The notes: generated by a model from the sequence alone, not told the origin. Positions 17,192-51,513 are shown, numbered from the stretch's first letter. The stretch: DNA of 64,000 bases from Candidatus Micrarchaeota archaeon (GCA_021810455.1 JAJZIU010000001.1:4613-68612), one strand, 5' to 3'. Numbers and translations: made by a program.

Positions 17192-17289
17192 TTAATCGAA
17201 TTATACCACAACAAGAATAACTAAAAACATTTCAGGAGAATCTAGCGTAACAAATATAATTATTGATTTTGATTTATGAGAGTGTGACC

Positions 17290-18147
17290 ATGTTTAGAAA
17301 ATCACAAAGTGCAATGGAATACTTGATGACTTATGGATGGTCCATACTAATAATTGCCGTAGTTCTCGGAGCACTTTCGTTTCTCGGTGTTTTCAATCCC
17401 GTAACGTTTGCACCAAAGGCGGCACCTGGTAGCTGTCAGGTGATAAAAAACGTACAGCTGGGAGTAAGCAATCTTGAAGGAAGTTGCAACAATCAGGTGC
17501 CGCAGTACGTTGCGCAGTTCAACGGACAAACAGGCTACATAAACCTTGGATTAGATAAATTTGATTATCAGGACATTACAGTATGCACATGGTTTAAATC
17601 TGGAGCTTACACTAGTGCAGATCAGAGAGTTGTAACGTCCGGAAGTGAAAATACCCATCTGTGGATGTTATCCATTACGGCAGGAGGATGCCCGGATAGT
17701 AATACGGTTTGTATGGTTATGTCGAATACCAGCACAACAGCAGCGACAGTTATGTCAGATAATCCTGTTAATAATAACGAATGGTATTTTGCTTGCGGGG
17801 TATCGCAACCTGAATCGTTATACATAAACGGAGTTTTGCAGACTTCTTCGGTTACTGAAGGGTGGAGCTTTTTGTCTGGATCTAACATAGGATCGAAGGG
17901 AGGTACAAGTTATTTCTATAATGGGACATTGGCAAACGTGCAGATATACAATACCACTCTTACTTCATCTTCAGTAAAAACACTTTATCATGAAGGCATA
18001 GGAGGTGCACCAATAGATCTTCAGAATCTTGTAGGTTGGTATCCGTTAAATGGAAACGGTAACGATTACTCTGGAAATGGTAATGAGGGGACCCCTGCAA
18101 ACGTAGATTTCATAAGCAATTGGTATAATGGCTACACACAGCCATGA
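17290..18147 (+). CDS. Type IV pilin-like protein (class III signal peptide) with LamG/ConA-like lectin domain
   Basis: MFRKSQSAMEYLMTYGWSILIIAVVLGAL is a class III (prepilin-type) signal. AQFNGQTGYINLG...ITVCTWFKSG...NEWYFACGV...LANVQIYNTTL fits LamG_3 jelly-roll motifs. ATG 17290 preferred over the track start at 17263. Confidence 0.7.
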   Translation: MFRKSQSAMEYLMTYGWSILIIAVVLGALSFLGVFNPVTFAPKAAPGSCQVIKNVQLGVSNLEGSCNNQVPQYVAQFNGQTGYINLGLDKFDYQDITVCTWFKSGAYTSADQRVVTSGSENTHLWMLSITAGGCPDSNTVCMVMSNTSTTAATVMSDNPVNNNEWYFACGVSQPESLYINGVLQTSSVTEGWSFLSGSNIGSKGGTSYFYNGTLANVQIYNTTLTSSSVKTLYHEGIGGAPIDLQNLVGWYPLNGNGNDYSGNGNEGTPANVDFISNWYNGYTQP

Positions 18148-25766: not shown

Positions 25767-26237
25767 GTGGAGCTTAACGAAGCGTCGCTTATAGAAAGGG
25801 AACTGACAGTAAGGAACCTTAGACTCAGTAGAGAAGTGTTAGAGACAAGACGGTCTGCGATAAGATGGCTCGCGCTGTCTTTGGGCATAATAAATCCCGG
25901 AGAGTCAAGACTTGGTTCTCTAGCGGTTTTGGATGCGCTGGTTTATTTTCAATTTGCTGTCAAGAAAGATCCAAACGTTAGGGAAATGATAGATTATATA
26001 AATGCAAATTGGGAAACAATTAATGAAAAAACCTTAAGGTATCATTTGTTAAGAATGAAAAAGATGGGTATAGTAGAAAACAATCAAAGCAAGTTTTATT
26101 TTAAACCGCCGCAGGTAGGAGATAGATTTGATGCATACGCTTGGTCTTCTGAATTGTTCGGGGCATTTTATAGCGGTGTTGCAGTTAAACTTGCTGACGT
26201 AATAAACAATCTGAAGAATAGAGATGTGGTTAGATGA
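25767..26237 (+). CDS. Winged-helix (wHTH) putative transcriptional regulator
   Basis: 156 aa with a GTG start. ...TLRYHLLRMKKMGIVENNQSKFYF is a recognition-helix/wing pattern. 4-nt overlap with the downstream surface-protein gene. Confidence 0.5.
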   Translation: MELNEASLIERELTVRNLRLSREVLETRRSAIRWLALSLGIINPGESRLGSLAVLDALVYFQFAVKKDPNVREMIDYINANWETINEKTLRYHLLRMKKMGIVENNQSKFYFKPPQVGDRFDAYAWSSELFGAFYSGVAVKLADVINNLKNRDVVR

Positions 26238-27847
26238 AAAAGTTGGAAATGTATTTATGGATAGTGTTTATAGCGGCGATAGCAGTAGCCGTGGTGTATT
26301 CAAGATTTATTTATAAACCCGAAGTTATGATGAGTTTGAGATTTACTTCTACTCCGAGCAACATTTTTGTATACCAAAATGTTGTTCTTCCAATAAATGT
26401 TTCAAACATTGGATCTATTCAAATAATAAACATGAGCGTGGGTATCTTCGTAAATAACACTTTGTCTGGAATTTACCATGTTTCCCTACCTAGGAACACA
26501 AGCGCGACGCTTAACTTTTCTTATACCCCCAAGTTGCCAGGTAAATATAATGTAACGGTCATGGCTGACCCAAACAATCTTTATAATTTAGGAAATAGAA
26601 AAAGTGCGAGTGACACATTTATACTCGTAGCAAATCCCGTAGAAACTCCTGCAGCTTATTCGTTGCTACCTGACGGACCAATAGTTTCAAGATCAATGGT
26701 AATGACAAACTTAGGATATGTTGCCTCTTCTTATCTTCTGAATAATTATAGCATGACACAATTGGGTTTATCTAATATAAGTGTGGCAAATTCGCTATTT
26801 TATCCGCTACTAAATCTTACAACACCGTATTTAAGCGATGTAGCAGTTGCAAGTGCAAGGTACAATAATGCTAGTGCTCTTTCCCTTTGGATTAGTGGAT
26901 ATCTTAAACCAAACATAGTAGATGTTGCTGCTGAAGGAAAGGGAATAAACTTCACAAACGAGAGTGTTGGGGGAAAAAGTGTATCTGTTATGCAACTTGA
27001 TTCTAATACTACGCTTTGTAGTTGGTATGATGGAGGCTGGATTAAGAATTTCGTATATAGAGGGCCATTATCGTGTTTATCAGTACTTAACAGGACAATT
27101 GTGCAGAATAAATCACAATCCAATCCGTTGGCAGATAAACTCAATCAATTATCACAAGGAGTTGTAGAGAACTTCAGCTATGCATACGGTGGAAATTATA
27201 TTATCGGAAAGATGTTAGTTGTTAATAGTTCGGTTATGTTTGCCTCTTTGCAAAATTTTGGTATAGATAACAATAGACTGTGCAGTGGCCCCATAACAAA
27301 CATAAATAACGCAAGCTATTGCAGCTATTATGTTTTTCCTTTGTCTGGAATGATAGGTAATTTTTCACTGATAAAAACACTCGCATTTACCAAAGAGTAT
27401 AATTCCAGCGTGGTGGCTTTGGTTAATACTTCGGATGTATTAAATCAGGTAGCCTACAATATTGGTGCACTTAATCAATTTAACATAACCGGACCGTATT
27501 TGAATTTCTCATCTGGAATAAGCAATATTTGTAAATTTGGAGGAGGATTTGAATGCTCTTCTGCTAAGTTGATAAATAACAGCGTGATGTTCACATTAGT
27601 CAACAAAAATAACGAAAGTGTGGTATTGAATAGTGTAGGGTGTATAGTTCAGAATGCAACGTATTATACCAATTTGACATCTGTTGTAGAGGTAGGTAAG
27701 TCTGTGAATGTCACTTCTGGTTGTGGGGATTTGTTTTCTTCATCTAATCCAAACAGTTACGTTGCAAGTATATATCTGAAATTTGGATTGAATTACACTA
27801 TTGGAGGAGCGCATAGATTCGCAAACGGTAACGTTTTGATCGTTTAG
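26234..27847 (+). CDS. Membrane-anchored extracellular glycoprotein with CARDB-like domain
   Basis: 537 aa. N-terminal anchor LWIVFIAAIAVAVVY. The segment VVLPINVSNIGSIQI...LNFSYTPKLPGKYNVTVMADPNN fits the CARDB pattern. Roughly 30 N-x-S/T sequons by eye. Confidence 0.6.
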   Translation: MKKLEMYLWIVFIAAIAVAVVYSRFIYKPEVMMSLRFTSTPSNIFVYQNVVLPINVSNIGSIQIINMSVGIFVNNTLSGIYHVSLPRNTSATLNFSYTPKLPGKYNVTVMADPNNLYNLGNRKSASDTFILVANPVETPAAYSLLPDGPIVSRSMVMTNLGYVASSYLLNNYSMTQLGLSNISVANSLFYPLLNLTTPYLSDVAVASARYNNASALSLWISGYLKPNIVDVAAEGKGINFTNESVGGKSVSVMQLDSNTTLCSWYDGGWIKNFVYRGPLSCLSVLNRTIVQNKSQSNPLADKLNQLSQGVVENFSYAYGGNYIIGKMLVVNSSVMFASLQNFGIDNNRLCSGPITNINNASYCSYYVFPLSGMIGNFSLIKTLAFTKEYNSSVVALVNTSDVLNQVAYNIGALNQFNITGPYLNFSSGISNICKFGGGFECSSAKLINNSVMFTLVNKNNESVVLNSVGCIVQNATYYTNLTSVVEVGKSVNVTSGCGDLFSSSNPNSYVASIYLKFGLNYTIGGAHRFANGNVLIV

Positions 27848-27854
27848 AATTTCC

Positions 27855-30584
27855 ATGGATCCTTATTCCTTATTTATAGCCAGATTCGGTAGATTTACAG
27901 AGGTACAAGAGATGGCTTTTGAAGCCATAAAAAAAGGTAGCAACTGTGTAATAACAGCACCTACAGGAAGTGGCAAAACAGACGCTGCATTGTTACCAAT
28001 GCTTGATCTTATATCGAAATCCGCATATGATAATAACATTTTAGTGCTTTATATAACACCCTTGAAAGCACTTAACAGAGATTTAATAAAGAGAGTGACC
28101 TGGCTGTGTAATGAATTGGGAGTAAGCGTAGGGGTCAGACATGGTGATACGAGTGTTGTTGAGAGAAAACACCAGGCAGAACACCCTCCACAATTGTTAA
28201 TAACCACACCAGAGAGTCTTCAAAATTTATTTTTATCCCCAAGACTCAGAAACTCTTTAAAGAAACTCAAAGGAGTTATAGTAGATGAGGTTCATGAGTT
28301 ATATTACAACAAAAGGGGCGCACAGCTTTCAGTTGCTTTGTCAAGAGTTACAAAAATTTCGGGCGAATTCCAACGTGTTTGCATAAGTGCAACGGTTGGT
28401 GATGTTGAGACGATTTCTGAGTTTATGTTTGGAAAAAGAGATTACACTGTTGTGAGGTCTTCAAAGGGTAAAAAATTTGATATTAATATAGAGATGCCGG
28501 AAAAACCACTTAGGAAGCACGACGAGATAATAGAGGCTTTTGGATTAGATGACCCATCTCTTGCAAGAATGGAGAGGATATCTGAAATTGTAAAAGATTC
28601 TGAAGCGACTTTGGTTTTTACAAACACAAGACAAGCCGCAGAATCTCTTGGCAGTAAGCTGATTTACTTTGATAAGGTGGAGCATTTTGGTCCAGTGGGC
28701 ATACACCATAGCTCTATTGAAAAAACAGAAAGGATAGAGACTGAAGAGAAACTAAAGGAGGGGAAATTGAAGTGTATTGTTTCTACAAGTTCATTGGAGC
28801 TCGGAATAGATATAGGAATGATAAATCAAGTTATACAATACGGATCCCCGAGGCAGGCAACGCGTTTATTACAGAGGATAGGTAGAGGGGGACATAGAGA
28901 AGGTGCCACGTCAATAGGCACAATTTTAGTTTCTGGTGTTATGGATGCTTTAGAATCTATTGCGATAGTAGCTTCTGCAAGAGATGCGCGTTTAGAAAGA
29001 CAGGATATGGAAAGGTGTGCAATTGATGTTATGTTGAACCAGATATGTTCCATTGCATTGGAATACAGAGAGATAAGTATTGATGAAATGTACGCAGTGT
29101 TTAAAGGTGCTTCTGCATTTTCCGATTTGCAGCTGGAGCTTTTCGAATCTGTAGTAAAATTTGCAGAAGAAGAAAAACTCATTACCACAAGAGATAAGAT
29201 AAGGATAAGTAGTAGGGCAAGAGATTATTTTTACAATAATATAAGTGTGATACCTGATTCGCCGAAATTTTACGTGAAGGATATATTAAGAAATAAGGTC
29301 GTGTCGCTTCTTGATGAAAAGTTTGTTTTTAGCTACATAGATGAGGGCTCTGTTTTCATAACGCGTGGAATGCCGTGGAAAGTGGTGAGTATTGAAGAGG
29401 ACACTGTTTTTGTTGAACCGAGTTTAGACCTAAGTGCGGCCATACCGGATTGGGAAGGAGAGGACATACCAGTGTCTTACGAAATTGCAAATAGGGTTGC
29501 TAGACTTTTCGAAGAAGTACCAGCAGATGCAAGGCTTGATAAAAACTCTGAAAGAGAAATAAGTTTGTTTATTAAAAAACAATTAGAATCATTTATACCT
29601 TCAACAAATACGATAGCTGTCGAGATTCTTGATGAATATGTAATAATCCATTCCTTATTAGGAAAGTTGGCAAACGAGTTTTTAGGCAGAGCGATAATGA
29701 GAATTATCGGTTCTAGAGACATATTCATGAGAGCTACACCGTATGCGATTATGATTGATTACGGATCTTCAATAAAAGCTCCAGATATTAAAAAGGCGTT
29801 TGATGTCTTACAGGTTTCAAAACTTGATGCTTCAGTTGTTGAGGATACAGAGCTGTTCAGATACAAATTTGTACAGATATCTAAATTGCTAGGCATTATT
29901 GATAAAAAAGCCAAAGTAACAAAAAACGTTGCAAACAAGTTGGTAAGATTTTATAGAGATTCGATAGTATACAGGGAGACTCTCAGAGATTTGGAAAAGA
30001 ACAACATAGATGTAGAAAGAGTTAGGGGGCTTTTTAACGAAATAAGAGCAGGTAGAGTAAAGATAATATATAGGAATCAAATATCCGCGCTTTCTGAGGA
30101 ACTGATTAAAAGTACTATGAAATACAGGGAACTTTTGTCTTCCGCCCTACCTGGCAATGAAGTCGTTGAGCAATTCGAGATTAAGTTTAGGGGAAGAAAT
30201 GTTTTGTTATTATGCACCTATTGTGGATTTGAATTTAATTATGAAATAAAGATAGGGAAGGATGGATTAATAAGATGCCCAAGATGTGGAAGTTCAATGT
30301 TGGTTAGATCGAAGGATGTCGCAAGAGATGTGATTAAAAGAAGTTTGTTAAAATCAAAATTGACTGTAGATGATAGAAAAATCAAGATAGAACTTTTGAA
30401 AGAAGCAGGAATGGTATCAGAATATGGAGATAGAGCTCTGATAACATTATTAACTTATGGGGTTGGAGTCAACACTGCTGCAAGAGTTCTCAGGCTAGTT
30501 AGAACAGATTATTCGAGATTTATAAAAGATATAATAGAAGCACAGAAAACTTTTGTAAAAAACAGCAAGTTTTGGAAAAAATAG
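27855..30584 (+). CDS. lhr: Lhr-type DEAD/DEAH-box superfamily 2 helicase (paralog 1, C-terminal zinc ribbon)
   Basis: 909 aa. APTGSGKT (I), VDEVHE (II), TSSLELGIDIG, QRIGRGGHR (VI), and the long Lhr-core-type C-terminal extension. CTYCGFEF...RCPRCGS zinc ribbon near the C-terminus. Confidence 0.86.
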   Translation: MDPYSLFIARFGRFTEVQEMAFEAIKKGSNCVITAPTGSGKTDAALLPMLDLISKSAYDNNILVLYITPLKALNRDLIKRVTWLCNELGVSVGVRHGDTSVVERKHQAEHPPQLLITTPESLQNLFLSPRLRNSLKKLKGVIVDEVHELYYNKRGAQLSVALSRVTKISGEFQRVCISATVGDVETISEFMFGKRDYTVVRSSKGKKFDINIEMPEKPLRKHDEIIEAFGLDDPSLARMERISEIVKDSEATLVFTNTRQAAESLGSKLIYFDKVEHFGPVGIHHSSIEKTERIETEEKLKEGKLKCIVSTSSLELGIDIGMINQVIQYGSPRQATRLLQRIGRGGHREGATSIGTILVSGVMDALESIAIVASARDARLERQDMERCAIDVMLNQICSIALEYREISIDEMYAVFKGASAFSDLQLELFESVVKFAEEEKLITTRDKIRISSRARDYFYNNISVIPDSPKFYVKDILRNKVVSLLDEKFVFSYIDEGSVFITRGMPWKVVSIEEDTVFVEPSLDLSAAIPDWEGEDIPVSYEIANRVARLFEEVPADARLDKNSEREISLFIKKQLESFIPSTNTIAVEILDEYVIIHSLLGKLANEFLGRAIMRIIGSRDIFMRATPYAIMIDYGSSIKAPDIKKAFDVLQVSKLDASVVEDTELFRYKFVQISKLLGIIDKKAKVTKNVANKLVRFYRDSIVYRETLRDLEKNNIDVERVRGLFNEIRAGRVKIIYRNQISALSEELIKSTMKYRELLSSALPGNEVVEQFEIKFRGRNVLLLCTYCGFEFNYEIKIGKDGLIRCPRCGSSMLVRSKDVARDVIKRSLLKSKLTVDDRKIKIELLKEAGMVSEYGDRALITLLTYGVGVNTAARVLRLVRTDYSRFIKDIIEAQKTFVKNSKFWKK

Positions 30585-40402: not shown

Positions 40403-40516
40403 ATGGCAAAGAAAGAACAAAAAGACGACGATGAAGAAGACGAAGAAGACGAAGAAGACTGGGACGAAGACGAAGAAGACGAAGACTGGGACGAAGACAT
40501 GGATGATGATGAATAA
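40403..40516 (+). CDS. 37-aa hyper-acidic mini-protein (not in ORF track)
   Basis: Manual translation gives MAKKEQKDDDEEDEEDEEDWDEDEEDEDWDEDMDDDE. ATG is preceded by GAGGTG 6 nt upstream and by a TATA-like box. The stop (40514-40516) directly abuts the stop of the convergent giant gene (40517). The antisense track ORFs here are Ser- or Leu/Arg-repeat artefacts. Confidence 0.5.
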   Translation: MAKKEQKDDDEEDEEDEEDWDEDEEDEDWDEDMDDDE

Positions 40517-43500
40517 TCATCCGTATTTTTTGCGGATTGCGTAAATTGCCAATACTGAGGCAAGCGCAATCGCTAAAATAACTACTCCTAAGTTTCCATA
40601 TCCTAACTCTGCTAGTCCTATGTCCACCCCTTCTTGGGTATAATTAGGGAACCATTGGTAATTGAGTACATTAAATGTAGTGTACGATTTCGAGGTTGGA
40701 TCTGCAGATGAAGACAACCACGCTTGACTGGCTTGTAATGGTTGTGGGGAAGGAGACCCGTAAAACCTTGCAATTATCGTGGCACTCCCTATCCCACAAG
40801 CGTATATGCTGTTGCTAAAGAAACCCATCGAATTTGTTGTTGTTGTACCTACTAGCCCAAGCTGTGATGTGCACGTCCCTGTACCGTTGCTAAATATCGG
40901 TTGGCAGAATCTCTGTTGGCCATTTTGTCCCGGAGAACATGTTTGTGGAATATTTTTGTTTCCATCATTACCGTATATATTACAATTAGTATCTACTGGT
41001 ACAAGCAACGAATTTGGGGGAGGATTGCATTCTCCAAGCGAATTGTAGGCTGTTGAGTATGTTATGGTATTTGCGTTATTTGTCTGCCCTAAATAAACAG
41101 GATTTGCCAAAACGCAATTGCTAGGTATCTGTGCTCCGCTTCCAACATCTCCAAAAGCGCAAAGCATTGCATTTTTTTCATTAGATGGGTTTTGAAGTGC
41201 ATTGTATCCTATATAATTGATATTTGTATCATAATACAGATATATTAGCCCGTTTCTGAGAGGATAAAATTTATTGTTTATTGGACTGTAATATCCAACA
41301 GTACCATTTATGAAAATTTTTGTATCGTTTGCGTTATTCGAATTGACTACCGGGGTTACCTGTAGTGATATGCTTGTTGTATTCGCTATATCCGTATCAA
41401 GCGGGGCGTATATTGCGTTGCCGAATCTATCTCTTAATACAAAAACAAGCCTCTGATAACCTAGGACATTGGCAACACTTCCTGCGCCGTATTTAAAACT
41501 TGAACTGTTTATATTAAAACTCATAGGATTGTTGTAAACAATCTGCTGGTACCAATCAAAAAGCTTCACGAATGTAGGCAATGCTGAATTAATGTTGAAT
41601 ACGTTTTGATAAGATATGCCTGTCCTGGTATTAGTCGCTATCTTTTGATTTCCAACAAGAGCATACGCGGGTCCATTATAAGGGCCGTAAGGCAAAGAAG
41701 ATATTGTTTGATAACTCAAAGGCCCTAATTGGGTATTAAAGACAGTATTTATTATGTTGTACTCTAAAAGATCGGTTGCATTAAGCACCACTTGGTTATT
41801 CGTTGTTGGTCCTGTGGTAGCATTTACGTAAATGCTACCAAACTGCTTGTCTCCCTGAATATTCATTATCATCTGTGGATTTATGTAAGAACCTAGGTCA
41901 GACATGTTCGGAACATAATAATTACTTCCTTGGGGCCCGCTAAACTGAAGATAAATTCCACCCCCTTCAACATTTGCAGAAAGTGAGTTGGATCTTGCAT
42001 TTATTATTCCATAAGAAAAAATCTCGCTTGAACTTGAACTGGAATGACTTGATGGTGGGTTACTACACGATGCACCCTGCTGTATTGGTACCCCCGTGCC
42101 TGAAAATTGCCAATTCTGACTGGTTGAGTATGTGTATTTGTACGGTACCAACACATAACCTATAATATTGCTAGTCATGCTTACCGGGGAGGTAACCACC
42201 GAAGTTCCTGGAGGTATTGAAACAGACGTTCCCGTTATGCCACCAAGTTCCGAATTTGTAGGAGGTGTAAACCCTGAAAAACAACTCGAGTATGAACTCG
42301 AATTCAAAGAACCAGATTGCAAACTATTTATACACGTTTGATTGTAACTCTGCGATTGCTGTGACTGTGGACTTCCTCCTCCTCCAGTGAACGCAGATCC
42401 GAATAAATTCTGATATGATAATATTCTACCCGATCCCGTACTCTCCAAATACTTGAAAGGATCCGCAACCGTGTATATCGGTGCTGCAAGCTGATCTAAA
42501 TAAGAACTAGGTTTGCACGAGTTAGAATTCACTCCGGTATCTACAAAACATGAGAATAAACCTATTCCATCCAACAATCTTGTGTAATTTTCAATGCTTA
42601 CTTTTGCAAACAGAAGTTCTCCGTAGTCATTGGCAACAGTCTGGCAGTTAAGAAAACAGCCATTGTTGATGTGCTGCTGCGATGGGAATAAGAAGTCAGC
42701 AGTATAGTTATAATTTACTGAAAAACTGGACTGAGCTTCTCGTGGCACGCCACAACCTATGCCTATTCCAAAAGGCAGATTGAAGCAAGCTATGGCTTGA
42801 ACATTCGGTCCTAGTGACAAATAGCTCGATTTCAAGTTGTTTGGATTATAATCGCACGATTCTGAAGAACAAAAAGAAACATAGTTGCTATTATGTCCAC
42901 TTTCTAACACGTTTGCAGATAATACCCACCCATAAGGTGGATATGTATCATTAGGATAGAAACCAGGAGTGGCTGTTGTATAATACGTTGAAGTTGGTTG
43001 CCCCCCTGCACCAACACACTTATACTGGTATGTAGGAGCCTCTCCAGTTCTTGCACTAGTAACTCCCAAAGCACTGCCTGGACATGTTGATGAAATCTGT
43101 GGAGAACAGCCAACCGCAGCATTGCAATTAGGAACTACTCCACATTTAGATACTTGTGGTGTATTACATGTTGCCGCTCGCTGTGAATACATGTCGTTGA
43201 ACTTCGTAGGGTTAAATGGCACATTGGTTCCAGAAGAATTTATGACTCTAAGTAATAACGTATTGAAAAAGACACCTTGTCCTGAAATCCCGGGCACTGG
43301 CCCCGGAGTGCCAACGTACCCTCCCCAATTGTCTAAAACATACAAATATCCATTAACATCCTGAATACCTATTGGGTGGTGAAATGCTTGCGTATCAAAT
43401 GCAAGACCTTGATACTTCTGCGTTTGTACTGCTGATAGTGCAGACTTAATCCAACCTGGTGTAATACCATATAATCCGCCATTCTCCAAATACGTCGCAA

Positions 43501-46060
43501 TATTAAGATTCGCCAAGGTTGTTGATACACTCTCACCAGGAATAATTCCTGGAGACGCGGTGGTGTTCGAAACAGGCAAATTAGCATTATAATCAAAAGT
43601 AAGATCGATACTGTCTTCTAAGGCAAGCGAATTCCCGCTATAAACCTCTATGCTGCCATAAGATGGGCTTGCTAAATAAATCTGTTGTCCGCTTGGTGAA
43701 ACTGTAATCTCCTGGAATTGTTTATCTATTGTATTTGTAGTCACTGCTGGTGAACCTGTCAAGATGCCAGTTATCTCAACCAATGAGGGATGTGTTGATT
43801 GTATAGGGCCTCTGTTAGTTTGGATTGATGTCGTGGTACTACCAACAATGAAAACATCCCCATTATTATCTACTGATATATTGAATGGTGTAAACCCTTG
43901 CAATTGCGAAAAACCATTCAAGTCAGATTGGGAAATCAAATAACTATAACCGTTTTCACTATTTGCCACAAGCCCCCAATAGTTACTCCATGCGGTATTC
44001 CATTGCGAAGTGCAGCTGCTTTCAGATGCAGGATTGCAACTCACTTGTTGGATTGCTGATGTGGGTGTCTGTGGATTTGTAAAAGACCCTTTAGGTATGG
44101 CTCTTAAAACATTAAGTTGATATGCTCCAGATGTCCCAGTAAGTACGAATATGTAGTCATTGGGCATAACTGCCACGGATAGTGGACTCGGTAATGCGGA
44201 AGGCGGTCCAGATATTATACCACAGTTTGGACTACCTTCGGTACACCAAGGTAGACCGTTCTGCCCTTGGAGACAATTATTGTACTGTTTGCCATTGTAC
44301 GTATAAAGTCCTATTCCACCATCCATTGCTCCAGAGTAGGTTGTGGGCATGTATTGACAGTATGCCCCTACAAACTCGTTTACTGCTGGATCATCAAATG
44401 TCTGCCAATAACAAAACTTCTTACCCTGGACAACACCTGGGCAATTCTGATAGTTACTTCCAAAATATTGGATATAATCTTGTGCCCACTGCATTTCGCA
44501 TAACGGATTAAATTCCCAATTTGAAGCTCCTGTGGAGCAACTAGAAGGATTATAATTTGGTACTACTGGGTTTTGGTCATTCTGCAATAAGCCACAAGGA
44601 CATTTTCCACTTCCACCATATGTTGCTCCAGGATAGAAACCACTTTCAGCATTAGCTATAGAAACTATTATTTCCAATTCCGTTCCTGTAAAACCGGCTT
44701 GTTGCGCACATGCTACAACTTGTGAAAACTGCATCTTATAATGTGGAGAATTTTGGAAGTTTTGGTCAGGACAAGTTGCGGTTTGACTTGAACTAGTCTG
44801 TGCCTGTCCTGTTTGACTTGTGGTTGTTGTAACGATTCCTAGGCGACCTCCAACTCCTCTTACTGGTTGTGTTACTGCGCTTCCTAAGTTATTAAGAATA
44901 GTGCCTATTTGTGCAAGTGTATCTTCCTTTCCATTAAATGCACAAAGAAGACTGTCGAGACTTAAAACTACCTGGCCACTACTCTGGCAAGTTAAAAGAC
45001 TACCGCTATAATTTACAAACAAAATACCTGGTATGTCTACACTGAATGGATCAACTATTGATGGAGTATAATAATTCCAAGGGCTGAATACGTCATACTG
45101 CAAGTTACTTATCTGTGGAACCATGGTGGATAAAGACCCTGGTACGCCTATACTATATCCATAAGTAAGATATGGTAACGCTGGGGTATCAAACTGTGAC
45201 ATTATCGGATTCCCATTGTTATCCACTCCTGTAACTACGTTGAAAGGTATGTAACTATTTGCTATACTTCTCAATGTGGTCGTTTCACCGTAATTATACG
45301 TATACTGGCAACCATTCTCATCGTATGTTAGATCCTGCTCATTTATCTGTTTCGACTGTGGCAACCGTGCATTAGCTCCTTCAAAATTTGCAAAAGTTGC
45401 ACTCCAAGTCCATATATCATTCTGCGCGAAAGAAGGAACGCCGTTGAATATGTACGTGTTCGTTGCAAATCCGTTAGACAATTCCCCATCTACCATCGGT
45501 GTATAAGCTATATTCTTGACTTCTGCATTACCCGGATTGCCAACTTGCAGTGGGCCTACTGATGCCTGAGCGAGAGAAGATTGAGACCAGGTTACTGTGG
45601 TCACGAGTGTCAACTGACTCACAAGTGAACCCTGTGTGTTAAGACACGGCGCACCCGCAACGAACGGCACAATCCCGCTATAAAACAACACGTTAGATGT
45701 TGGGTCTGATGGCACATTTTCACATGTAAGAAACTTCAAGGCCTCCTGTTGATTTTGATTAGCAACTTGTAATACTGGGGATTCCTTGTAAATCTGTCCT
45801 TCTGGAGTTGAACTTTCCGAAGATGAAAAAACACCCGAATAGCTTGTAGTAAACGGAACCGTTATGGTGCTCGAAGCACTTCCGGAAGAAGGTTGTTGAA
45901 ATACAACATTATTAAATCCTGAATTTGATGGCGTTTCAAAAGATGCGTTGTAAAAATGCGATGTTAATAAAATCCCAAGTGCAAAAAATACAAGAGAAAG
46001 TACTAGTAAACATGAAAATAGAAAAGGCCATGCCTGGTCTTTTTTATCCTTAGCAACCAT
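40517..46060 (-). CDS. Giant (1,847 aa) Cys-rich surface protein with N- and C-terminal hydrophobic anchors, an SLT/lysozyme-like segment and NHL-like repeats
   Basis: Uninterrupted 5.5-kb ORF. N-terminal WPFLFSCLLVLSLVFFALGILL and C-terminal VVILAIALASVLAIYAIRKKYG. IANAESGF...CGLLQ lies at residues ~468-493. Blades include PIGIQDVNGYLYVLDNWGG. The composition is S/T/N/G-rich with few charged residues, many Cys and many N-x-S/T sequons. Confidence 0.85.
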   Translation of the reverse strand: MVAKDKKDQAWPFLFSCLLVLSLVFFALGILLTSHFYNASFETPSNSGFNNVVFQQPSSGSASSTITVPFTTSYSGVFSSSESSTPEGQIYKESPVLQVANQNQQEALKFLTCENVPSDPTSNVLFYSGIVPFVAGAPCLNTQGSLVSQLTLVTTVTWSQSSLAQASVGPLQVGNPGNAEVKNIAYTPMVDGELSNGFATNTYIFNGVPSFAQNDIWTWSATFANFEGANARLPQSKQINEQDLTYDENGCQYTYNYGETTTLRSIANSYIPFNVVTGVDNNGNPIMSQFDTPALPYLTYGYSIGVPGSLSTMVPQISNLQYDVFSPWNYYTPSIVDPFSVDIPGILFVNYSGSLLTCQSSGQVVLSLDSLLCAFNGKEDTLAQIGTILNNLGSAVTQPVRGVGGRLGIVTTTTSQTGQAQTSSSQTATCPDQNFQNSPHYKMQFSQVVACAQQAGFTGTELEIIVSIANAESGFYPGATYGGSGKCPCGLLQNDQNPVVPNYNPSSCSTGASNWEFNPLCEMQWAQDYIQYFGSNYQNCPGVVQGKKFCYWQTFDDPAVNEFVGAYCQYMPTTYSGAMDGGIGLYTYNGKQYNNCLQGQNGLPWCTEGSPNCGIISGPPSALPSPLSVAVMPNDYIFVLTGTSGAYQLNVLRAIPKGSFTNPQTPTSAIQQVSCNPASESSCTSQWNTAWSNYWGLVANSENGYSYLISQSDLNGFSQLQGFTPFNISVDNNGDVFIVGSTTTSIQTNRGPIQSTHPSLVEITGILTGSPAVTTNTIDKQFQEITVSPSGQQIYLASPSYGSIEVYSGNSLALEDSIDLTFDYNANLPVSNTTASPGIIPGESVSTTLANLNIATYLENGGLYGITPGWIKSALSAVQTQKYQGLAFDTQAFHHPIGIQDVNGYLYVLDNWGGYVGTPGPVPGISGQGVFFNTLLLRVINSSGTNVPFNPTKFNDMYSQRAATCNTPQVSKCGVVPNCNAAVGCSPQISSTCPGSALGVTSARTGEAPTYQYKCVGAGGQPTSTYYTTATPGFYPNDTYPPYGWVLSANVLESGHNSNYVSFCSSESCDYNPNNLKSSYLSLGPNVQAIACFNLPFGIGIGCGVPREAQSSFSVNYNYTADFLFPSQQHINNGCFLNCQTVANDYGELLFAKVSIENYTRLLDGIGLFSCFVDTGVNSNSCKPSSYLDQLAAPIYTVADPFKYLESTGSGRILSYQNLFGSAFTGGGGSPQSQQSQSYNQTCINSLQSGSLNSSSYSSCFSGFTPPTNSELGGITGTSVSIPPGTSVVTSPVSMTSNIIGYVLVPYKYTYSTSQNWQFSGTGVPIQQGASCSNPPSSHSSSSSSEIFSYGIINARSNSLSANVEGGGIYLQFSGPQGSNYYVPNMSDLGSYINPQMIMNIQGDKQFGSIYVNATTGPTTNNQVVLNATDLLEYNIINTVFNTQLGPLSYQTISSLPYGPYNGPAYALVGNQKIATNTRTGISYQNVFNINSALPTFVKLFDWYQQIVYNNPMSFNINSSSFKYGAGSVANVLGYQRLVFVLRDRFGNAIYAPLDTDIANTTSISLQVTPVVNSNNANDTKIFINGTVGYYSPINNKFYPLRNGLIYLYYDTNINYIGYNALQNPSNEKNAMLCAFGDVGSGAQIPSNCVLANPVYLGQTNNANTITYSTAYNSLGECNPPPNSLLVPVDTNCNIYGNDGNKNIPQTCSPGQNGQQRFCQPIFSNGTGTCTSQLGLVGTTTTNSMGFFSNSIYACGIGSATIIARFYGSPSPQPLQASQAWLSSSADPTSKSYTTFNVLNYQWFPNYTQEGVDIGLAELGYGNLGVVILAIALASVLAIYAIRKKYG

Positions 46061-46110
46061 ATATCAAGTACTATCTACATTGATATTTATACCTTGTCTT
46101 GGCATCGATT

Positions 46111-47598
46111 TTACATGATGTATATAGAGAAGCGCCTTATCGCTCGTTTACCAAAAATGTAGAACCTATTGCTATTCTTTTTAACATCTTTTATCAAGGG
46201 TTTATATCTGGCCTTTTCTTCGGGACTAAGTTTACCCTCCTTCACAATTGTTTGCTTTTTGCCTTCGACTATCTGCGTCTCTGTTTTACTTATTATGTCC
46301 TTCTTTACCATGCTGTACCATTCGTCAAGAGTATTTCCATGCGCCTTGATCATTCTTATGAAATCCCTCATTTCTATCTTTCTCTTCTTTCCTGTTCTAT
46401 CTTCTTCAGCTGCTGGTATTAATGCTGCTTTATCACAAATCTCTTCTATATCTGCCTGTGAGAAACCCATCGATGCTCTGGCCAGTCTGCCAAAATTCAT
46501 TCTCCCCAAAGGCATTTTCCTTGTGTTGTATATGAAAGCATGTTTTCTTGTTTTATAATCTGGAGGAGGCACATATATCGATTCTCCAAAACGTTTGCTT
46601 CTCTTAAGTGCAGGATCAATATCCCACGGTTGGTTTGTAGCACCTATTACAAATATGCCTTCAGGATTCTTCTCTATGCCATCCATTTCTTGCAAGAACT
46701 GGTTAACTGCCATTCTCATATAACTCTGCTGTTCTCCACCTCCCTCTCTTTTCATACCTAACGCATCTATCTCGTCAAAAAATATTATTACTGGGGTATT
46801 TTTCCTTGCCTGTTCGAATATGGCATGCATATTCTTTTCAGTATTTCCTGCATACATATCCACAATTTCATTAATCCTTGCAATCATAACGTTTGATCCA
46901 GTTTCTCCACCTATTGCATTTACCAGATATGTTTTTCCATTTCCAGGAGGCCCGTAAAAAATAACTCCCAATCCCAATTTTTTCCCGTACGCTTTCAACA
47001 GTTCTGGTTTTCTTATAGCCAGTATTATATTTTCATAGATGAGCTTCTTCTCCCTTTCCATTCCCACTACGTCTTTGAAAGTGATGTTTGACTTATGCCA
47101 TCTGACTTTTTTTAACTGTCCCTCCTCAACAACAGTTTCAGAAGATCCTCCCACCTTGGTTTTTTCTGATTTCTCTTCAATATCCTGCTTACCTAGTTTT
47201 GGCATAAGTTGTTCAAGTCTGGCCTTTGCCTGTTCATAATTGGGATTTCTGCTAAGAGCCTTTTCATACCATTCCTTCGCTCCTACATAATCATGCTGAT
47301 ATTCCGATATTATACCCATAACGTACGGTGCATCGTGGCTATTCGGTTCCATGTCCATAACTTTCTCTGCGTCTCTGGTAGCTTCGGTATACTTATTAAC
47401 TATGGCATAAGCTAATGCTCTGTTGAAATACGCACTGCCGTAATTGGGGTCTTCTTTTATTGCTTCAGAATAAAACTCGATGGCATCTTCGAATCTGTTT
47501 TCTTCAAAAGCTTTCCCCGCTTTAACATAGGCTTCCTTAGCTGCAGGATTCTGGGTATCCTTTCTCTCCTCCTTCTGTTCCTGCTCGGAAGCTTCCAT
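46111..47598 (-). CDS. TPR-repeat AAA+ ATPase (classic-clade AAA with an N-terminal TPR domain)
   Basis: 495 aa. About three TPR repeats (FEDAIEFYSEAIKEDPNYGSAYFNRALAY..., AKEWYEKALSRNPNY). Walker A GPPGNGKT, Walker B IIFFDEID, and second region of homology ATNQPWDIDPALKRSKRFGE. Confidence 0.85.
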   Translation of the reverse strand: MEASEQEQKEERKDTQNPAAKEAYVKAGKAFEENRFEDAIEFYSEAIKEDPNYGSAYFNRALAYAIVNKYTEATRDAEKVMDMEPNSHDAPYVMGIISEYQHDYVGAKEWYEKALSRNPNYEQAKARLEQLMPKLGKQDIEEKSEKTKVGGSSETVVEEGQLKKVRWHKSNITFKDVVGMEREKKLIYENIILAIRKPELLKAYGKKLGLGVIFYGPPGNGKTYLVNAIGGETGSNVMIARINEIVDMYAGNTEKNMHAIFEQARKNTPVIIFFDEIDALGMKREGGGEQQSYMRMAVNQFLQEMDGIEKNPEGIFVIGATNQPWDIDPALKRSKRFGESIYVPPPDYKTRKHAFIYNTRKMPLGRMNFGRLARASMGFSQADIEEICDKAALIPAAEEDRTGKKRKIEMRDFIRMIKAHGNTLDEWYSMVKKDIISKTETQIVEGKKQTIVKEGKLSPEEKARYKPLIKDVKKNSNRFYIFGKRAIRRFSIYIM

Positions 47599-48113: not shown

Positions 48114-48857
48114 TTACAGATTTCTAAGATCTCCTATAACTCCAAAATCAAGCGTCTCTCCCTCTCCAATACAAAATGCCCGCATCTTATCTGCATCAGC
48201 TAATTTTCTAAATACAGGTGCCATCTTACTTATATCTTCAAAATTAACACTTACTCCATCTGCAAAATAATTCATTGCAGGAAGCACCAGCAGTTTCCTA
48301 CCATCTTTTAAATCACCATACAAAAAACACTTCAGCTTCTCAAACTTTCCGATACCGTTCGGTACTGATATTGCGGGATGTACGTGTCCCATTATCAGAA
48401 GCTCTCCACCCTTACTCATAGGCGCTTCCTCTCCGTGAAAAAACAAAAAATCATCTATTAGGGTTTCCTGCCGATGCACCGTAATTTTCAACGGTTCTTT
48501 AAGCCTATCTATAAAATTGTCATGGTTTCCTTTAATCAAAGTAATCTCTTTTACTCCAAGATCTCCTTTAAGATATTCTACAAATTCTCTAAATTCATTA
48601 AACTCTTCAACATGCACTTTTGAAAATTCGTTTTTTATATCCCCATCAACTATTATCCGTTTTGCACCTGTAATCTCTTCTGCAATCTTCAAAGTATCTT
48701 TTATCTTTTTTAAATTTACTTTTGGCAAGAACGTGCCATTATCTGCCATAACCCCCTCATATCCCAGGTGCAGATCGGTGCAAACTATTGCTGAAAGGGA
48801 CCTGATTCTAATTACCGGAAGGCCGTCTAATATTTCTACGTTTTTGCTTAATTTCAT
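48114..48857 (-). CDS. MPE/SbcD-related archaeal metallophosphoesterase (Lhr-associated type)
   Basis: CTDLHLGYE, VDGDIKNEF, IKGNHDNF, FFHGEE and GHVHP are calcineurin-like phosphoesterase motifs. Any plausible start (ATG 48857 or 48872) overlaps the upstream lhr 3' end (48808) by at least 50 nt. Confidence 0.75.
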   Translation of the reverse strand: MKLSKNVEILDGLPVIRIRSLSAIVCTDLHLGYEGVMADNGTFLPKVNLKKIKDTLKIAEEITGAKRIIVDGDIKNEFSKVHVEEFNEFREFVEYLKGDLGVKEITLIKGNHDNFIDRLKEPLKITVHRQETLIDDFLFFHGEEAPMSKGGELLIMGHVHPAISVPNGIGKFEKLKCFLYGDLKDGRKLLVLPAMNYFADGVSVNFEDISKMAPVFRKLADADKMRAFCIGEGETLDFGVIGDLRNL

Positions 48858-51513
48858 TCTTAGATACACCAATCTTCGAAAGTACTCTTTTATGCAATTC
48901 CCTTATGTGCTTCCTTCTATCCTTCATCATTATAACATCTGCTTCCCCAAAAGTTATCACACCGTGGGAAAATGGCGAAGGCAATTTCGTCTCTATTATT
49001 CTATAACTCAAATTCCCGGATATTAATCCCTCTATTATTTCCTTCGCTCGAGGCAGATCCATAACATCCTCAAATATCTCACGATACGTTTCTTTCAGTA
49101 CCGGGAAATCTTCTCCTAATTCCTCCACTGATTTCAACAAAAGCGCAGAGTTAACCTGCTGTTTTCTAACACTTATCTTCCTGCCTTTATAATTCCTAAG
49201 TACCATAAAACTTCTTGCTGCACAGTATCTAAATCTCCTTCTCATCATCTCCGTCCTTCTTATATTCGTTTTCAGCAAGTTTTCTACGTCAATGCCTTTC
49301 AACATGCCTATTGCCTTAGATACATCATTCTTACCTATTTTTGTATTCTCATCTGTAAATAACGCGAATCCGTTGTCATTTATGTTTATTCCAATATCTA
49401 CATCATACATTTCTGCCAACACTATTGCAAATATCCTTGATAAAGCATCATTCACTCTTCTCCCGTAAAGACTATGAAATACAACGATATTCTTCCCGTC
49501 GTTGTCATCTTCTGTTGTCTCTATCAGCACTAACTTATCTGTTGGCACATATCCTGCAAAAAGCAACTGTTCTGCAAAATAGTTGAATACAGAAGTCTTT
49601 GAGTTTTGATCCATCGGCATGGCATCAAGCACCTTCCTACATTCCGCATCAGGCGTGAGCGTTCCCTTTACAATCTTTTTTATAACTTCTTGATTTTTAT
49701 TTATCGAATGTCCCATCGCTGTAGACAACAAACTCCTGAATTTTCCAATGTTTATTGCAAGCTCATAAGTCAATGGCAACTGTTCCGAAAACCAGGGAGG
49801 TATGGTGGGGATTTCTCCAGCAGCATCGCTAACATAACACTTCATAATCCTAGCGTATTCGAATCTGTACGGTTTTCCTCCAAGCACAAAAATATCACCT
49901 GGTTTAAGCCTGGCAAGAAATTCCTCCTCTATACTGCCTATCCACTTGCTATCTTTTGTCAAAACATCTATTGAAACCTCATCAGGTATTGTTCCCAAAT
50001 TCAAATAATATATTAATCTAGCAAACTTGCCTCTTTTTCCAAATGCACGTTCGTTTTCATCATACCAAATCTTACCATATACCCTTCTGCTTTCCAAACC
50101 AACATACAATCCCGAAAGATACTTTATCAGAAGATCAAAATCATGAACACTTAAGTTTCTGTAAGCATAGGCTCTTCTAACCAGTTCAAGTGCATCTTCA
50201 ACTTTCCATTTCTTCTCTAAAGACATTCCTACTATGTGTTGTGCAAGTACATCCATCGCATTTGCCGGGGTCGAAAACGAATCAAGATGTCTTTTTATCG
50301 CAGAATCAAGCATTACCGCACATTCTACTAAATCATCTCTATTCGTAACTATCACCTCGCCTCTTGCAACGTCATTAAATCTGTGTCCGCTTCTTCCAAT
50401 TCTTTGCACTGCCCTGGCAACACTTTTTGGAGAACCTAGCTGTACAACATTATCTATCGAACCTATATCTAATCCAAGCTCAAGGCTCGTGGAAGACACG
50501 GCGCACTTCAATTTGCCTTTTTTTAGCATCTCTTCTACTTCTAACCTCGTTTCCCTAGAGAGTGAACCATGGTGTGCCGCTATCGCTTGCTCGTCATATC
50601 CGAATCTTTTTGATAAATTGTATACGACACGTTCGGTCCCGCTTCGTGTATTTGTAAAAACAAGAGTTGTTTTGTTCTTCTTTATTATGTCATTTATTAT
50701 TTTGTATATTGAATTTTCTATCTTTTCATCCCTTGCGTTTATTATATCCTTTACTGGGCAGATAACTTCAAAATCCAACTTCTTCTCCCATGTAGCATCC
50801 ACCACGTGGCAGTCTCTTTCCTTACCGTCTCTGTAACCTACTAAGAATCTTGCTGCTTCATCCAACGGATGCAATGTCGCACCCATACCCACTCTGATAA
50901 GCTCTTTACCTACAAGATCGACTAATCTCTCTATAGAAAGTGAGAGATGAACACCTCTCTTATTGTTTGCGAGTTCGTGAAGTTCGTCTATTACAACATA
51001 CTTCACATTCTTCATATTCTCCGCAAATTTTGGAGAATTCAATATTATGGCAAGACTCTCCGGTGTTGTTACCAATATGTTTGGAGGATGTGCAAGCTGT
51101 CTCTGTCTCTCAGAGGGTTTAGTATCTCCTGTCCTTATGCCTACTGTTATCTTTTTTATATCTATACTTATGCCCGAATAAATATCCTCTAAGGGTTCCG
51201 TCAAGTTTTTAAAAACATCATTGTTAAGGGCTCTTAACGGAGAAACATAGATGCAATATATTTTTTCTTCGAGTTTTCCTTCAAGAGACATGTTCATAAG
51301 GTCGCTAAGTATCGACATGAATGCTGAAAATGTTTTGCCACTTCCTGTAGGTGCTGTTATCAATATGCTCTTGCCTTCTTTAACGAGTTTAAAAGAGTAC
51401 AACTGCGGAGGTGTCGGATTTACATACTTTTTTTCAAACCAAACCCTGATAAATTGGTTAAGTGAACCGAGACTCTCTTCTCTACTGAAAGGGGCTTTGC
51501 AACTAACTATCAA
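48808..51513 (-). CDS. lhr: Lhr-type DEAD/DEAH-box superfamily 2 helicase (paralog 2, MPE-linked)
   Basis: 901 aa. APTGSGKT, IDELHE, SSTSLELGLDIG, QRIGRSGHR and the Lhr-core-like C-terminal domain. TTG start. No C-terminal zinc ribbon, unlike paralog 1. Confidence 0.86.
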   Translation of the reverse strand: MIVSCKAPFSREESLGSLNQFIRVWFEKKYVNPTPPQLYSFKLVKEGKSILITAPTGSGKTFSAFMSILSDLMNMSLEGKLEEKIYCIYVSPLRALNNDVFKNLTEPLEDIYSGISIDIKKITVGIRTGDTKPSERQRQLAHPPNILVTTPESLAIILNSPKFAENMKNVKYVVIDELHELANNKRGVHLSLSIERLVDLVGKELIRVGMGATLHPLDEAARFLVGYRDGKERDCHVVDATWEKKLDFEVICPVKDIINARDEKIENSIYKIINDIIKKNKTTLVFTNTRSGTERVVYNLSKRFGYDEQAIAAHHGSLSRETRLEVEEMLKKGKLKCAVSSTSLELGLDIGSIDNVVQLGSPKSVARAVQRIGRSGHRFNDVARGEVIVTNRDDLVECAVMLDSAIKRHLDSFSTPANAMDVLAQHIVGMSLEKKWKVEDALELVRRAYAYRNLSVHDFDLLIKYLSGLYVGLESRRVYGKIWYDENERAFGKRGKFARLIYYLNLGTIPDEVSIDVLTKDSKWIGSIEEEFLARLKPGDIFVLGGKPYRFEYARIMKCYVSDAAGEIPTIPPWFSEQLPLTYELAINIGKFRSLLSTAMGHSINKNQEVIKKIVKGTLTPDAECRKVLDAMPMDQNSKTSVFNYFAEQLLFAGYVPTDKLVLIETTEDDNDGKNIVVFHSLYGRRVNDALSRIFAIVLAEMYDVDIGININDNGFALFTDENTKIGKNDVSKAIGMLKGIDVENLLKTNIRRTEMMRRRFRYCAARSFMVLRNYKGRKISVRKQQVNSALLLKSVEELGEDFPVLKETYREIFEDVMDLPRAKEIIEGLISGNLSYRIIETKLPSPFSHGVITFGEADVIMMKDRRKHIRELHKRVLSKIGVSKNEIKQKRRNIRRPSGN

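Follow-up and report, generated by a model that had tools for sequence, protein, structure and literature searches.

A predicted giant surface protein with a propeller and a lysozyme-like module belongs to an unnamed protein family of Micrarchaeota

It is poorly understood how DPANN episymbionts attach to their hosts or gain access to them, and most of the proteins that take part have yet to be identified. A 64,000-nucleotide stretch of DNA from a Candidatus Micrarchaeota archaeon (GCA_021810455.1, JAJZIU010000001.1:4613-68612; hereafter the window) encodes a protein of 1,847 residues, here called the giant, which an earlier note had described as a double-anchored, Cys-rich surface protein, a candidate for partner or host attachment and the core of a candidate three-gene surface module. 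What is this protein, and what might it do? Our searches show it to be a member of an unnamed family essentially confined to, and found across, Micrarchaeota. We read it, with moderate confidence, as a low-copy, Sec-exported, C-terminally anchored surface scaffold that would present a ligand-binding propeller and a lysozyme-like cutting head at contact range.

The open reading frame (ORF) of the giant and the regions recognised in it (aa, amino acids) are listed below; domain hidden Markov models (HMMs) were cut from the family alignment and run against 238 collected family sequences.

40517..46060, minus strand: ORF of the giant, 1,847 aa plus TGA stop (40517-40519), uninterrupted from its ATG, with the same product on 21 contigs
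45956..46060, minus strand: aa 1-35, basic n-region MVAKDKKDQ and 23-residue hydrophobic core (from hydropathy; signal-peptide-like in relatives)
44996..45793, minus strand: aa 90-355, family N-domain with near-invariant Cys139 and Cys251 and a W-T-W motif (204 of 238 family sequences)
44201..44779, minus strand: aa 428-620, clade-specific lysozyme-like (SLT_3-type) module with 12 Cys (from profiles; 45 of 238 family sequences)
44645-44647, minus strand: catalytic-type Glu472 in A-E-S, with a GLLQ motif after it (from the alignment)
43196..44197, minus strand: aa 622-955, YVTN/NHL-type beta-propeller with at least four recognisable blade motifs (profile A5 against PDB)
41561..43195, minus strand: aa 956-1500, Cys-bearing linker/middle region (from the family-alignment HMMs)
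40616..41578, minus strand: aa 1495-1815, membrane-proximal C-terminal domain (alignment A4)
40520..40615, minus strand: aa 1816-1847, juxtamembrane LAELGYGNLG, transmembrane (TM) helix VVILAIALASVLAIYAI and cytoplasmic tail RKKYG (from hydropathy and relatives)

The gene is real and intact, and is indeed the largest in the window, whose next-largest ORFs encode 909 and 901 aa. Because an identical protein is encoded on 21 contigs of separately made assemblies (ENA, JGI, NCBI and Logan), an assembly or frameshift artefact is excluded, and with it the interruption on resequencing that the earlier note had named as grounds for dismissal. The composition is also as that note described it: rich in S/T/N/G/Q (44.5%, compared with 27.6% in 46 other ORFs of the window), poor in the charged residues D/E/K/R (8.3% versus 24.9%) and rich in Cys (45 residues, 2.44% versus 0.73%). 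The only other ORFs with some 8.7-11% charged residues encode integral-membrane or predicted envelope proteins. Elsewhere in the window, a 294-aa protein (17263-18147, plus strand) has a low-charge, extracellular-type composition like that of the giant, and joins a LamG/concanavalin-like domain to a signal sequence of class III (type IV pilin-like), QSAMEYLMTYGWSILII.

An extracellular, disulfide-stabilised and probably glycosylated protein had been proposed; of this, an extracellular-type, Cys-rich, membrane-tethered protein is supported. The N-x-S/T sequons, said to be many, are depleted, with 19 observed against 31 ± 4.8 expected from composition (19 or fewer occurred in 0.65% of shuffles), and most close relatives show the same deficit; heavy N-glycosylation is not supported by their number. 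The window's densest protein in sequons (29, or 5.4 per 100 aa) is a 537-aa CARDB protein with an N-terminal TM segment (26234-27847, plus strand), which for heavy N-glycosylation would be a far stronger candidate than the giant.

Relatives of the giant numbered 14 in a word-indexed search and 114 (one genome per species) in a degenerate-pattern scan with a profile of the C-terminal 856 residues. Almost all of the 80 loci retrieved of the 114 carry the label Micrarchaeota, and one of them comes from the complete genome of the cultivated ‘Ca. Micrarchaeum’ A_DKE; loci of relatives are numbered here with the prefix L. Searching 1.84 billion cluster representatives (50% identity) by HMMER with alignment A3 gave 220 matches at E ≤ 1e-3, and since 214 of these were already found at E ≤ 1e-10, the family is sharply bounded, without twilight-zone relatives. 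Members are 1,560 to ~3,800 aa long and mostly single copy per genome, and share an architecture of signal peptide, N-domain, propeller, ~860 residues of novel Cys-bearing domains, TM helix and basic tail. A search of the literature open to searching turned up no earlier account of this core family or of its conservation throughout the phylum. Clear family members also lie on contigs (L036, L054, L058, L063, L068, L069, L078, L080 and L089) that were deposited as Marsarchaeota, Methanothrix sp., Acidiferrales bacterium or ‘bacterium’, probably through wrong binning or labelling of metagenome-assembled genomes.

The lysozyme-like segment reported in the earlier note is real. The giant alone scores 16.1 bits (E = 0.016) against Pfam SLT_3 (PF18896), for which the gathering threshold is 27 bits, while the aligned segments of two relatives, P0003 (48.6 bits, 1e-12) and P0005 (33.9 bits, 4e-8), are both above the Pfam cut-off. 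A 16-sequence profile of the module (A10) matches C-type lysozymes at E = 3e-4 and places the Glu of its E-S pair on their catalytic Glu35. All 16 family modules aligned keep both the E-S pair and the Gly of GLLQ, and the giant's A-E472-S and GLLQ correspond to the two SLT_3 motifs, Glu in E-S and G-[LIV]-x-Q. By our reading of the alignment, the position matching lysozyme Asp52 is not conserved in the module; lytic transglycosylases likewise have no conserved equivalent of that residue. These comparisons show the module to be homologous to lysozymes, with its predicted catalytic Glu intact.

The adjoining region is a propeller. With the giant's sequence alone there was no Pfam match to a YVTN or NHL repeat, but the 70-sequence profile A5 matched solved propellers in PDB: the YVTN propeller of a Methanosarcina mazei surface-layer protein (1l0q, E = 3.6e-12), hydrazine synthase beta (5c2v_B, 3.4e-7) and NHL-derived propellers (Pizza and PknD, 7e-5 to 9e-4). 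Repeated blade motifs thus occur together with significant similarity to known propellers. Foldseek searches with a low-confidence model of aa 40-1000 gave top matches that were all propellers, arising from one moderately confident stretch. The NHL-type blades that had been placed at ~43226-44188 were therefore right in kind; they belong to a propeller at aa 622-955 whose best-matching blade is YVTN-like.

The remaining conserved regions resemble nothing catalogued. Neither Pfam nor NCBIfam holds a model for the N-domain, the Cys-bearing middle region or the C-terminal domain, and their profiles (the 62-sequence A6 for the N-domain, 47-79 sequences for the others) found no PDB match at E ≤ 5; nor did a PDB search with the whole protein or with 11-sequence tiles. 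The C-terminal ~900 residues, which the earlier note had failed to recognise, thus include ~860 without a Pfam, NCBIfam or PDB-profile match. AlphaFold2 models of aa 40-1000 and aa 960-1815, built on 11-sequence alignments, reached a mean predicted local distance difference test score of only 39 and 35, and Foldseek found no match with the latter. Comparison by hhalign spoke against internal duplication of the novel domains, an apparent match between A4 and A7 being an artefact of overlapping segment boundaries.

These regions belong to the conserved core of the family. In addition to the N-domain (204 of the 238 sequences), lysozyme-like module (45) and propeller (221), the HMMs matched the Cys-rich segment aa 956-1250 in 212, the middle segment aa 1270-1500 in 233 and the C-terminal domain in 235-238. 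The middle region (aa 956-1500) contains a PPYGW motif, invariant Cys1171, Cys1182 and Cys1332 and near-invariant Cys1064 and Cys1069; the C-terminal domain has six invariant Cys (1634, 1649, 1678, 1693, 1719 and 1755). Across the N-domain, the Cys/middle region and the C-terminal domain, 11 or more Cys positions show little or no variation, which suggests structural disulfides. In alignment A4, 79 C-terminal domains are 35-59% identical to that of the giant, and since their mean column identity is 25%, compared with 16-17% in the other domains, conservation is highest beside the membrane.

Both hydrophobic ends that had been reported are present, at aa 8-38 (Kyte-Doolittle peak 2.84) and at aa ~1814-1845, the latter followed by the basic tail RKKYG (aa ~1814-1847 overall). 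The juxtamembrane motif is conserved in the family as IGLxELS[YF]G, the giant's Ile-Gly being aa 1814-1815, inside the preceding domain; it was not seen at the C-termini of other extracellular-type proteins read by eye. Among 196 near-full-length family sequences, 85% have the N-terminal and 95% the C-terminal hydrophobic segment, and a small-x-small motif follows the former in 163 of the 167 members that have it. Cytoplasmic tails have a median of 9 aa with 5 K/R and 0 D/E, and reach 30 residues. From these features we infer that the family norm is a cleavable-looking signal peptide and a single C-terminal TM helix, that is, type I topology, so the ‘double-anchored’ label is unsupported. In the giant itself, aa 1-35 may be either a Sec signal peptide or an uncleaved signal anchor: its own N-terminus has no clean small-x-small site after the hydrophobic core, and because TSHF stands where a 45%-identical relative has VHA|S, cleavage is uncertain. 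An archaeosortase-type sorting signal was considered and rejected; the tripartite shape of motif, helix and basic tail is present, but without a PGF-type motif or an NCBIfam match, and the relatives' tails reach 30 residues.

Pfam scans of 34 long relatives and seven more showed what else the scaffold carries. The extra modules lie mostly N-terminal to the core or between N-domain and propeller. They include lytic heads (SLT_3 in 8 of the 34 long members, NlpC/P60 in 2 and Peptidase M23 in 1) and glycoside-hydrolase-type heads (GH5 cellulase and GH39), with GxGYxYP also found; PKD domains occur in three of a second batch of 18, with one K319L-like PKD in the first batch, and DUF2341 (4), InlB-type B-repeats (2), SprB and LamG complete the set. 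We took matches to STI1/UBQLN/FH1 as low-complexity noise, and those to DnaJ, MgtE_N and DUF445, one member each, as probable fusion or assembly artefacts, which is a guess. On these predictions the family is a fixed scaffold with swappable lytic and binding modules.

The giant also evolves rapidly. It is 35-48% identical to its counterparts in five genomes, compared with 47-83% for flanking genes in the same genomes. In L008, L009, L024 and L025 it is 35-45% identical where a neighbouring gene for an ATPase with TPR and AAA domains (TPR-AAA) is 76-83% identical; in L008 the giant is at 35%, a metallophosphoesterase at 68%, Lhr at 61% and RNase H at 56%; and in L018 the giant is at 48%, its five neighbours are at 47-64% and one neighbour is as low as the giant. 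It thus evolves faster than any of the neighbouring genes compared in four of the five genomes, and ranks with the fastest in L018.

In distant lineages, a 355-498-aa protein with a conserved N-terminal helix (..LIAAAAG..) and a charged body follows the giant on the same strand, and a highly charged protein of 480-520 aa is often encoded on the other strand; tblastn found no homologues of these downstream membrane or charged proteins in the 64-kb window. The same-strand follower lies at:

L001 12406-13545, same strand as the giant
L005 13786-14853, same strand as the giant
L007 15465-16760, same strand as the giant
L002 15325-16779, same strand as the giant
L015 13211-14665, same strand as the giant
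L016 8692-10188, same strand as the giant

The earlier note had bracketed the giant between a TPR-AAA gene upstream and a 37-aa acidic ORF at its stop, and both are there.

46111..47598, minus strand: gene for a 495-aa TPR + AAA ATPase, upstream of the giant across a 50-nt spacer (clade-level synteny)
46084..46091, minus strand: TATA-box-like TATAAATA, ~27 nt before the giant's ATG, within the 50-nt spacer
40403..40516, plus strand: convergent 37-aa hyper-acidic ORF MAKKEQKDDDEEDEEDEEDWDEDEEDEDWDEDMDDDE, with a Shine-Dalgarno-like AGAGGTG ahead; its TAA abuts the giant's TGA
Acidic ORF counterparts: L008 16695-16808; L009 9273-9392; L002 16837-16956; L005 14865-14987; L016 10185-10313; 34 of loci L018-L097

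The conserved three-gene order proposed for them fared unevenly. TPR-AAA, whose AAA part scores best against Cdc48, FtsH and CdvC-type models, all below cut-off, lies directly upstream on the same strand (33-55 nt) only in the window, L009, L024 and L025; in L008 one opposite-strand gene intervenes. It is missing from the upstream position in ~75 of the 80 species loci, where its place is filled by KsgA (25 of 80) together with a beta-lactamase-fold gene in 17 of 80, or else by a GT4 glycosyltransferase. We judge the adjacency to be clade-level synteny, outside the giant's unit, and TPR-AAA appears from its conservation to be a slowly evolving gene of housekeeping type. Because the TATA-like element sits ~27 nt before the ATG, the giant probably has its own promoter, of leaderless type.

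The acidic ORF, by contrast, is linked to the giant well beyond the window's clade. In 34 of the 80 species loci (33 of the 73 that have 2 kb or more of flank) the giant has downstream of it an ORF of 28-49 aa with more than 45% D/E, a MAKK... start and spaced W/F/Y residues near the acidic C-terminus. Each of these ORFs is 2 nt to 5 kb away and on the strand opposite to the giant; 34 were counted in 498 kb of downstream flank and 0 in 234 kb of upstream flank. None has a Pfam match. Being on the plus strand and convergent, the acidic ORF lies outside the giant's transcription unit. The linkage is real and old, but NAC and DUF424 are frequently found in this region as well, so that an ancestral gene order simply kept would be enough to explain it. 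The mini-protein could nonetheless be a ligand of the TPR clamp or of the giants' polybasic tails. The two abutting stops fall within a 9-bp hairpin followed by T6 (40499-40531), the T-run being the reverse complement of the giant's Lys-Lys codons, so that the probable terminator of the acidic ORF extends over the final codons of the giant. The other genes of the window are of housekeeping type (gyrase A/B, two Lhr helicases, eIF2-alpha and PAC2). The two Lhr-type large helicase paralogues lie at 27855-30584 (plus strand) and 48808-51513 (minus strand), and the second overlaps the downstream metallophosphoesterase gene (48114-48872, minus strand), an arrangement kept in L008.

Is the giant part of the S-layer? 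Its A_DKE orthologue is Micr_00434, a protein of 2,010 aa encoded directly after KsgA and ~33% identical to the giant, which is unannotated in every database used by Krause et al. (Supplementary Data S5, PMC8975820). In the A_DKE co-culture its mean transcripts per million (TPM) value is 0.95, compared with 1.4 for SMC, 0.5 for SufB and 124.8 for the S-layer gene Micr_00292 (PMC8975820). Micr_00434 is therefore expressed at housekeeping level, far under the S-layer gene (~130-fold below it), and on these values the giant is not a component of the S-layer lattice. Micr_00434 is unmentioned in any paper whose text could be searched and absent from the supplement of the S-layer paper, which gives proteomic evidence neither way. 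S-layer proteins of the SLP_Mh type are expected to combine very high expression with few sulfur-containing residues, whereas the giant has 45 Cys and an orthologue at TPM 0.95. No match to PF05123 (S_layer_N) or TIGR01564 was found in the giant at E ≤ 0.1 with Pfam and NCBIfam, and no S-layer-domain match among the large or extracellular-type ORFs of the window that were scanned. The earlier note would have given way had the protein mapped full-length onto a characterised S-layer or adhesin family; it does not map onto the Micrarchaeota S-layer protein SLP_Mh, a Cys-poor protein of ~101 kDa that carries PF05123. Adjoining the S-layer gene in A_DKE, Micr_00291 encodes a LamG-domain protein of 5,095 aa with a TPM of ~0.95 (PMC8975820), which is a second, different giant surface protein in Micrarchaeota.

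Under the reading that we prefer, the giant would be exported by Sec and anchored to the cytoplasmic membrane through a single C-terminal helix, leaving a short basic tail in the cytoplasm and ~1,780 residues of acid-adapted ectodomain, probably disulfide-stabilised, outside. The membrane-proximal two-thirds (propeller and ~860 novel residues) would be the conserved family scaffold, and the distal end would carry lineage-variable heads, here a lysozyme-like, putatively glycan-cleaving module beside the ligand-binding propeller. Present in low copy and reaching outward from the cell, the giant could act on the glycans or wall polymers of a partner cell, or on those of a biofilm matrix, by binding them and cutting them locally, and binding and cutting together may serve attachment, access to the partner's surface, or both. 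We infer the giant's topology, disulfides, exposure beyond the S-layer, substrate and any host-contact role, and a part in host or partner attachment, as the earlier note had suggested, may belong to it.

Several points weigh against such a reading. The lysozyme-like head is found in just ~19% of the family (45 of 238), and ~1,100 residues, in the three conserved core regions, are without a fold assignment after AlphaFold2. The expression evidence concerns another species, through an orthologue of ~33% identity. Thermoplasmatales, the hosts known for acidophilic Micrarchaeota, are wall-less, so the substrate of the head is hard to place, which is the chief difficulty of this reading. Finally, the core family is universal and lies amid housekeeping genes, which fits a basic envelope function equally well.

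Other explanations share parts of this evidence. It is very unlikely, in our estimate, that the giant is a membrane-tethered, SlaB-like second S-layer component, a stalk that would hold an anchorless S-layer protein 20-25 nm above the membrane. Gfrerer et al. (10.1101/2021.04.28.441871) left it open whether the SLP_Mh N-terminus is a signal peptide or a TM domain, and raised a second, TM-bearing S-layer protein as a possible stalk if a signal peptide is cleaved. The giant has the single C-terminal TM helix of a SlaB-like stalk, with an ectodomain predicted from hydropathy, basic tail and positive-inside rule to lie outside; across the phylum its family is found as widely as the S-layer gene, and the best structural relative of its propeller by sequence is the archaeal S-layer domain 1l0q. 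A SlaB-like protein, however, would be encoded beside the lattice protein and expressed with it, whereas the giant is not beside an S-layer gene in the window, and in A_DKE Micr_00434 and Micr_00292 lie ~140 loci apart and differ 130-fold in TPM, the former at a value typical of housekeeping genes. Interchangeable enzymatic heads and fast evolution are atypical of a lattice anchor, and the giant is Cys-rich where S-layer proteins are typically Cys-poor. Decidedly unlikely, too, is a nutrient-scavenging platform of exo-enzymes, digesting bacterial wall debris and matrix polysaccharides in acidic biofilms for a cell unable to make sugars, with no part in attachment. Three murein-hydrolase-type classes of head (SLT_3, NlpC/P60 and M23) with GH5 and GH39, the conserved catalytic Glu, and the reported inability of A_DKE to make carbohydrates would all suit it. 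Yet ~81% of the family has no SLT_3 head and most of the long members scanned have no recognisable catalytic head, while scaffold and propeller are kept; membrane tethering and low expression suit action at contact range better than bulk digestion, and no sugar or peptide uptake genes adjoin the giant in the window.

The neighbourhood and the wide distribution of the family lend themselves to two further explanations. We give a slim chance to the idea that TPR-AAA, giant and acidic mini-protein form one surface unit in which, for example, the ATPase handles the giant and the acidic peptide is a cofactor. TPR clamps bind acidic C-terminal peptides, and this general property, together with the polybasic cytoplasmic tails of the giants, the contiguity of the three genes in the window, L009, L024 and L025 (with one gene between in L008), and an acidic ORF that is downstream and convergent in all 34 linked loci and upstream in none, speaks for such a unit. 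But the ATPase gene is absent upstream in most loci and conserved at 76-83% against 35-45% for the giant, ahead of which stands a TATA-like element of its own; the acidic ORF lies on the opposite strand, often 1-5 kb off with genes between; plain ancestral synteny is possible where NAC and DUF424 share the linked region; and the giant's own cytoplasmic tail is just RKKYG. That the giant is a housekeeping factor of envelope biogenesis, organising or remodelling the glycocalyx, S-layer or pseudo-periplasm of the cell that makes it and playing no part in dealings with other cells, strikes us as highly improbable, even though the family is phylum-wide, mostly single copy per genome and stably placed among KsgA, NAC, gyrase and eIF2-alpha, and the orthologue's transcript is steady and at housekeeping level. 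Against it stand the giant's position as the fastest or near-fastest evolving gene of its neighbourhood, and the swappable lytic and adhesive heads, which include peptidoglycan-type hydrolases, yet no murein-synthesis genes lie within the 64-kb window.

The surface scaffold that we favour resembles several known systems. The giant represents a new, unmodelled family of the episymbiont giant-surface-protein type that would work most like fam00969 and SPEARE, without being demonstrably a member of either. The fam00969 proteins, large extracellular proteins of Pacearchaeota and Woesearchaeota with a lytic-transglycosylase domain, are reported as specific to those two groups (Castelle et al. 2021, PMC8204110). 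As described there, they share with the giant a DPANN origin, a length of up to ~3,000 aa, a predicted extracellular location, a lysozyme/lytic-transglycosylase domain and a proposed role in binding or degrading the walls of other cells; the comparison is by description only. The giant family, unlike them, is from Micrarchaeota, and its lytic domain is an optional head (~19%) on a conserved scaffold of more than 1,000 aa without known relatives. SPEARE proteins of Nanohaloarchaeota (Hamm et al. 2019, PMC6642349) are likewise giants of DPANN symbionts, mostly extracytoplasmic, with a single TM helix near the C-terminus, variable adhesion domains and a hydrolytic domain, and a proposed role in host interaction. 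What they conserve most, however, is a region resembling a type III restriction enzyme, which lies in the cytoplasm beyond the TM helix (PMC6642349); the giant has only RKKYG there, and no similarity to their protease, toxin or LamG domains was detected in the giant.

Other archaeal surface proteins share less. With the M. mazei protein 1l0q (YVTN propeller and PKD) the giant has an archaeal surface location in common, and some of its relatives carry PKD, but the propeller alone is related, mainly through one strongly YVTN-like blade, and the remaining architecture is unrelated. SLP_Mh (Micr_00292; 10.1101/2021.04.28.441871) is, like the giant, a phylum-wide, acid-exposed envelope protein of Micrarchaeota with a signal peptide, but at 978 aa, with PF05123/TIGR01564, almost no sulfur residues and top rank in the proteome it differs from the giant, which has none of these domains and 45 Cys. 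The giants of Mia14, ‘Ca. Mancarchaeum acidiphilum’ (Golyshina et al. 2017, PMC5498576), are again Micrarchaeota surface proteins with YVTN/Kelch propellers, PKD and CARDB and a proposed role in host contact; compared by description, they are strain-specific and partly laterally acquired, whereas the giant family is vertical and phylum-wide, with a fixed core.

An isolated hypothetical giant has thus become a phylum-wide family with a domain map, conserved Cys, a mutable catalytic residue and a catalogue of heads. Its ~1,100 conserved residues without a Pfam model or a relative of solved structure, now represented by ~200 diverse sequences, make good targets for structure prediction, and the conserved link to a hyper-acidic ORF of 28-49 aa is an extra testable puzzle. 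With an orthologue, Micr_00434, in the cultivated co-culture of A_DKE, localisation, blocking and activity experiments are feasible. It is possible, though unlikely, that the family is the general cell-contact device of Micrarchaeota, with an inherited new-fold stalk, heads matched to the partner and a polybasic tail coupled to the acidic mini-protein and, in some clades, to TPR-AAA. If this were true, Micr_00434 would be a direct handle on how the host surface is recognised and opened.

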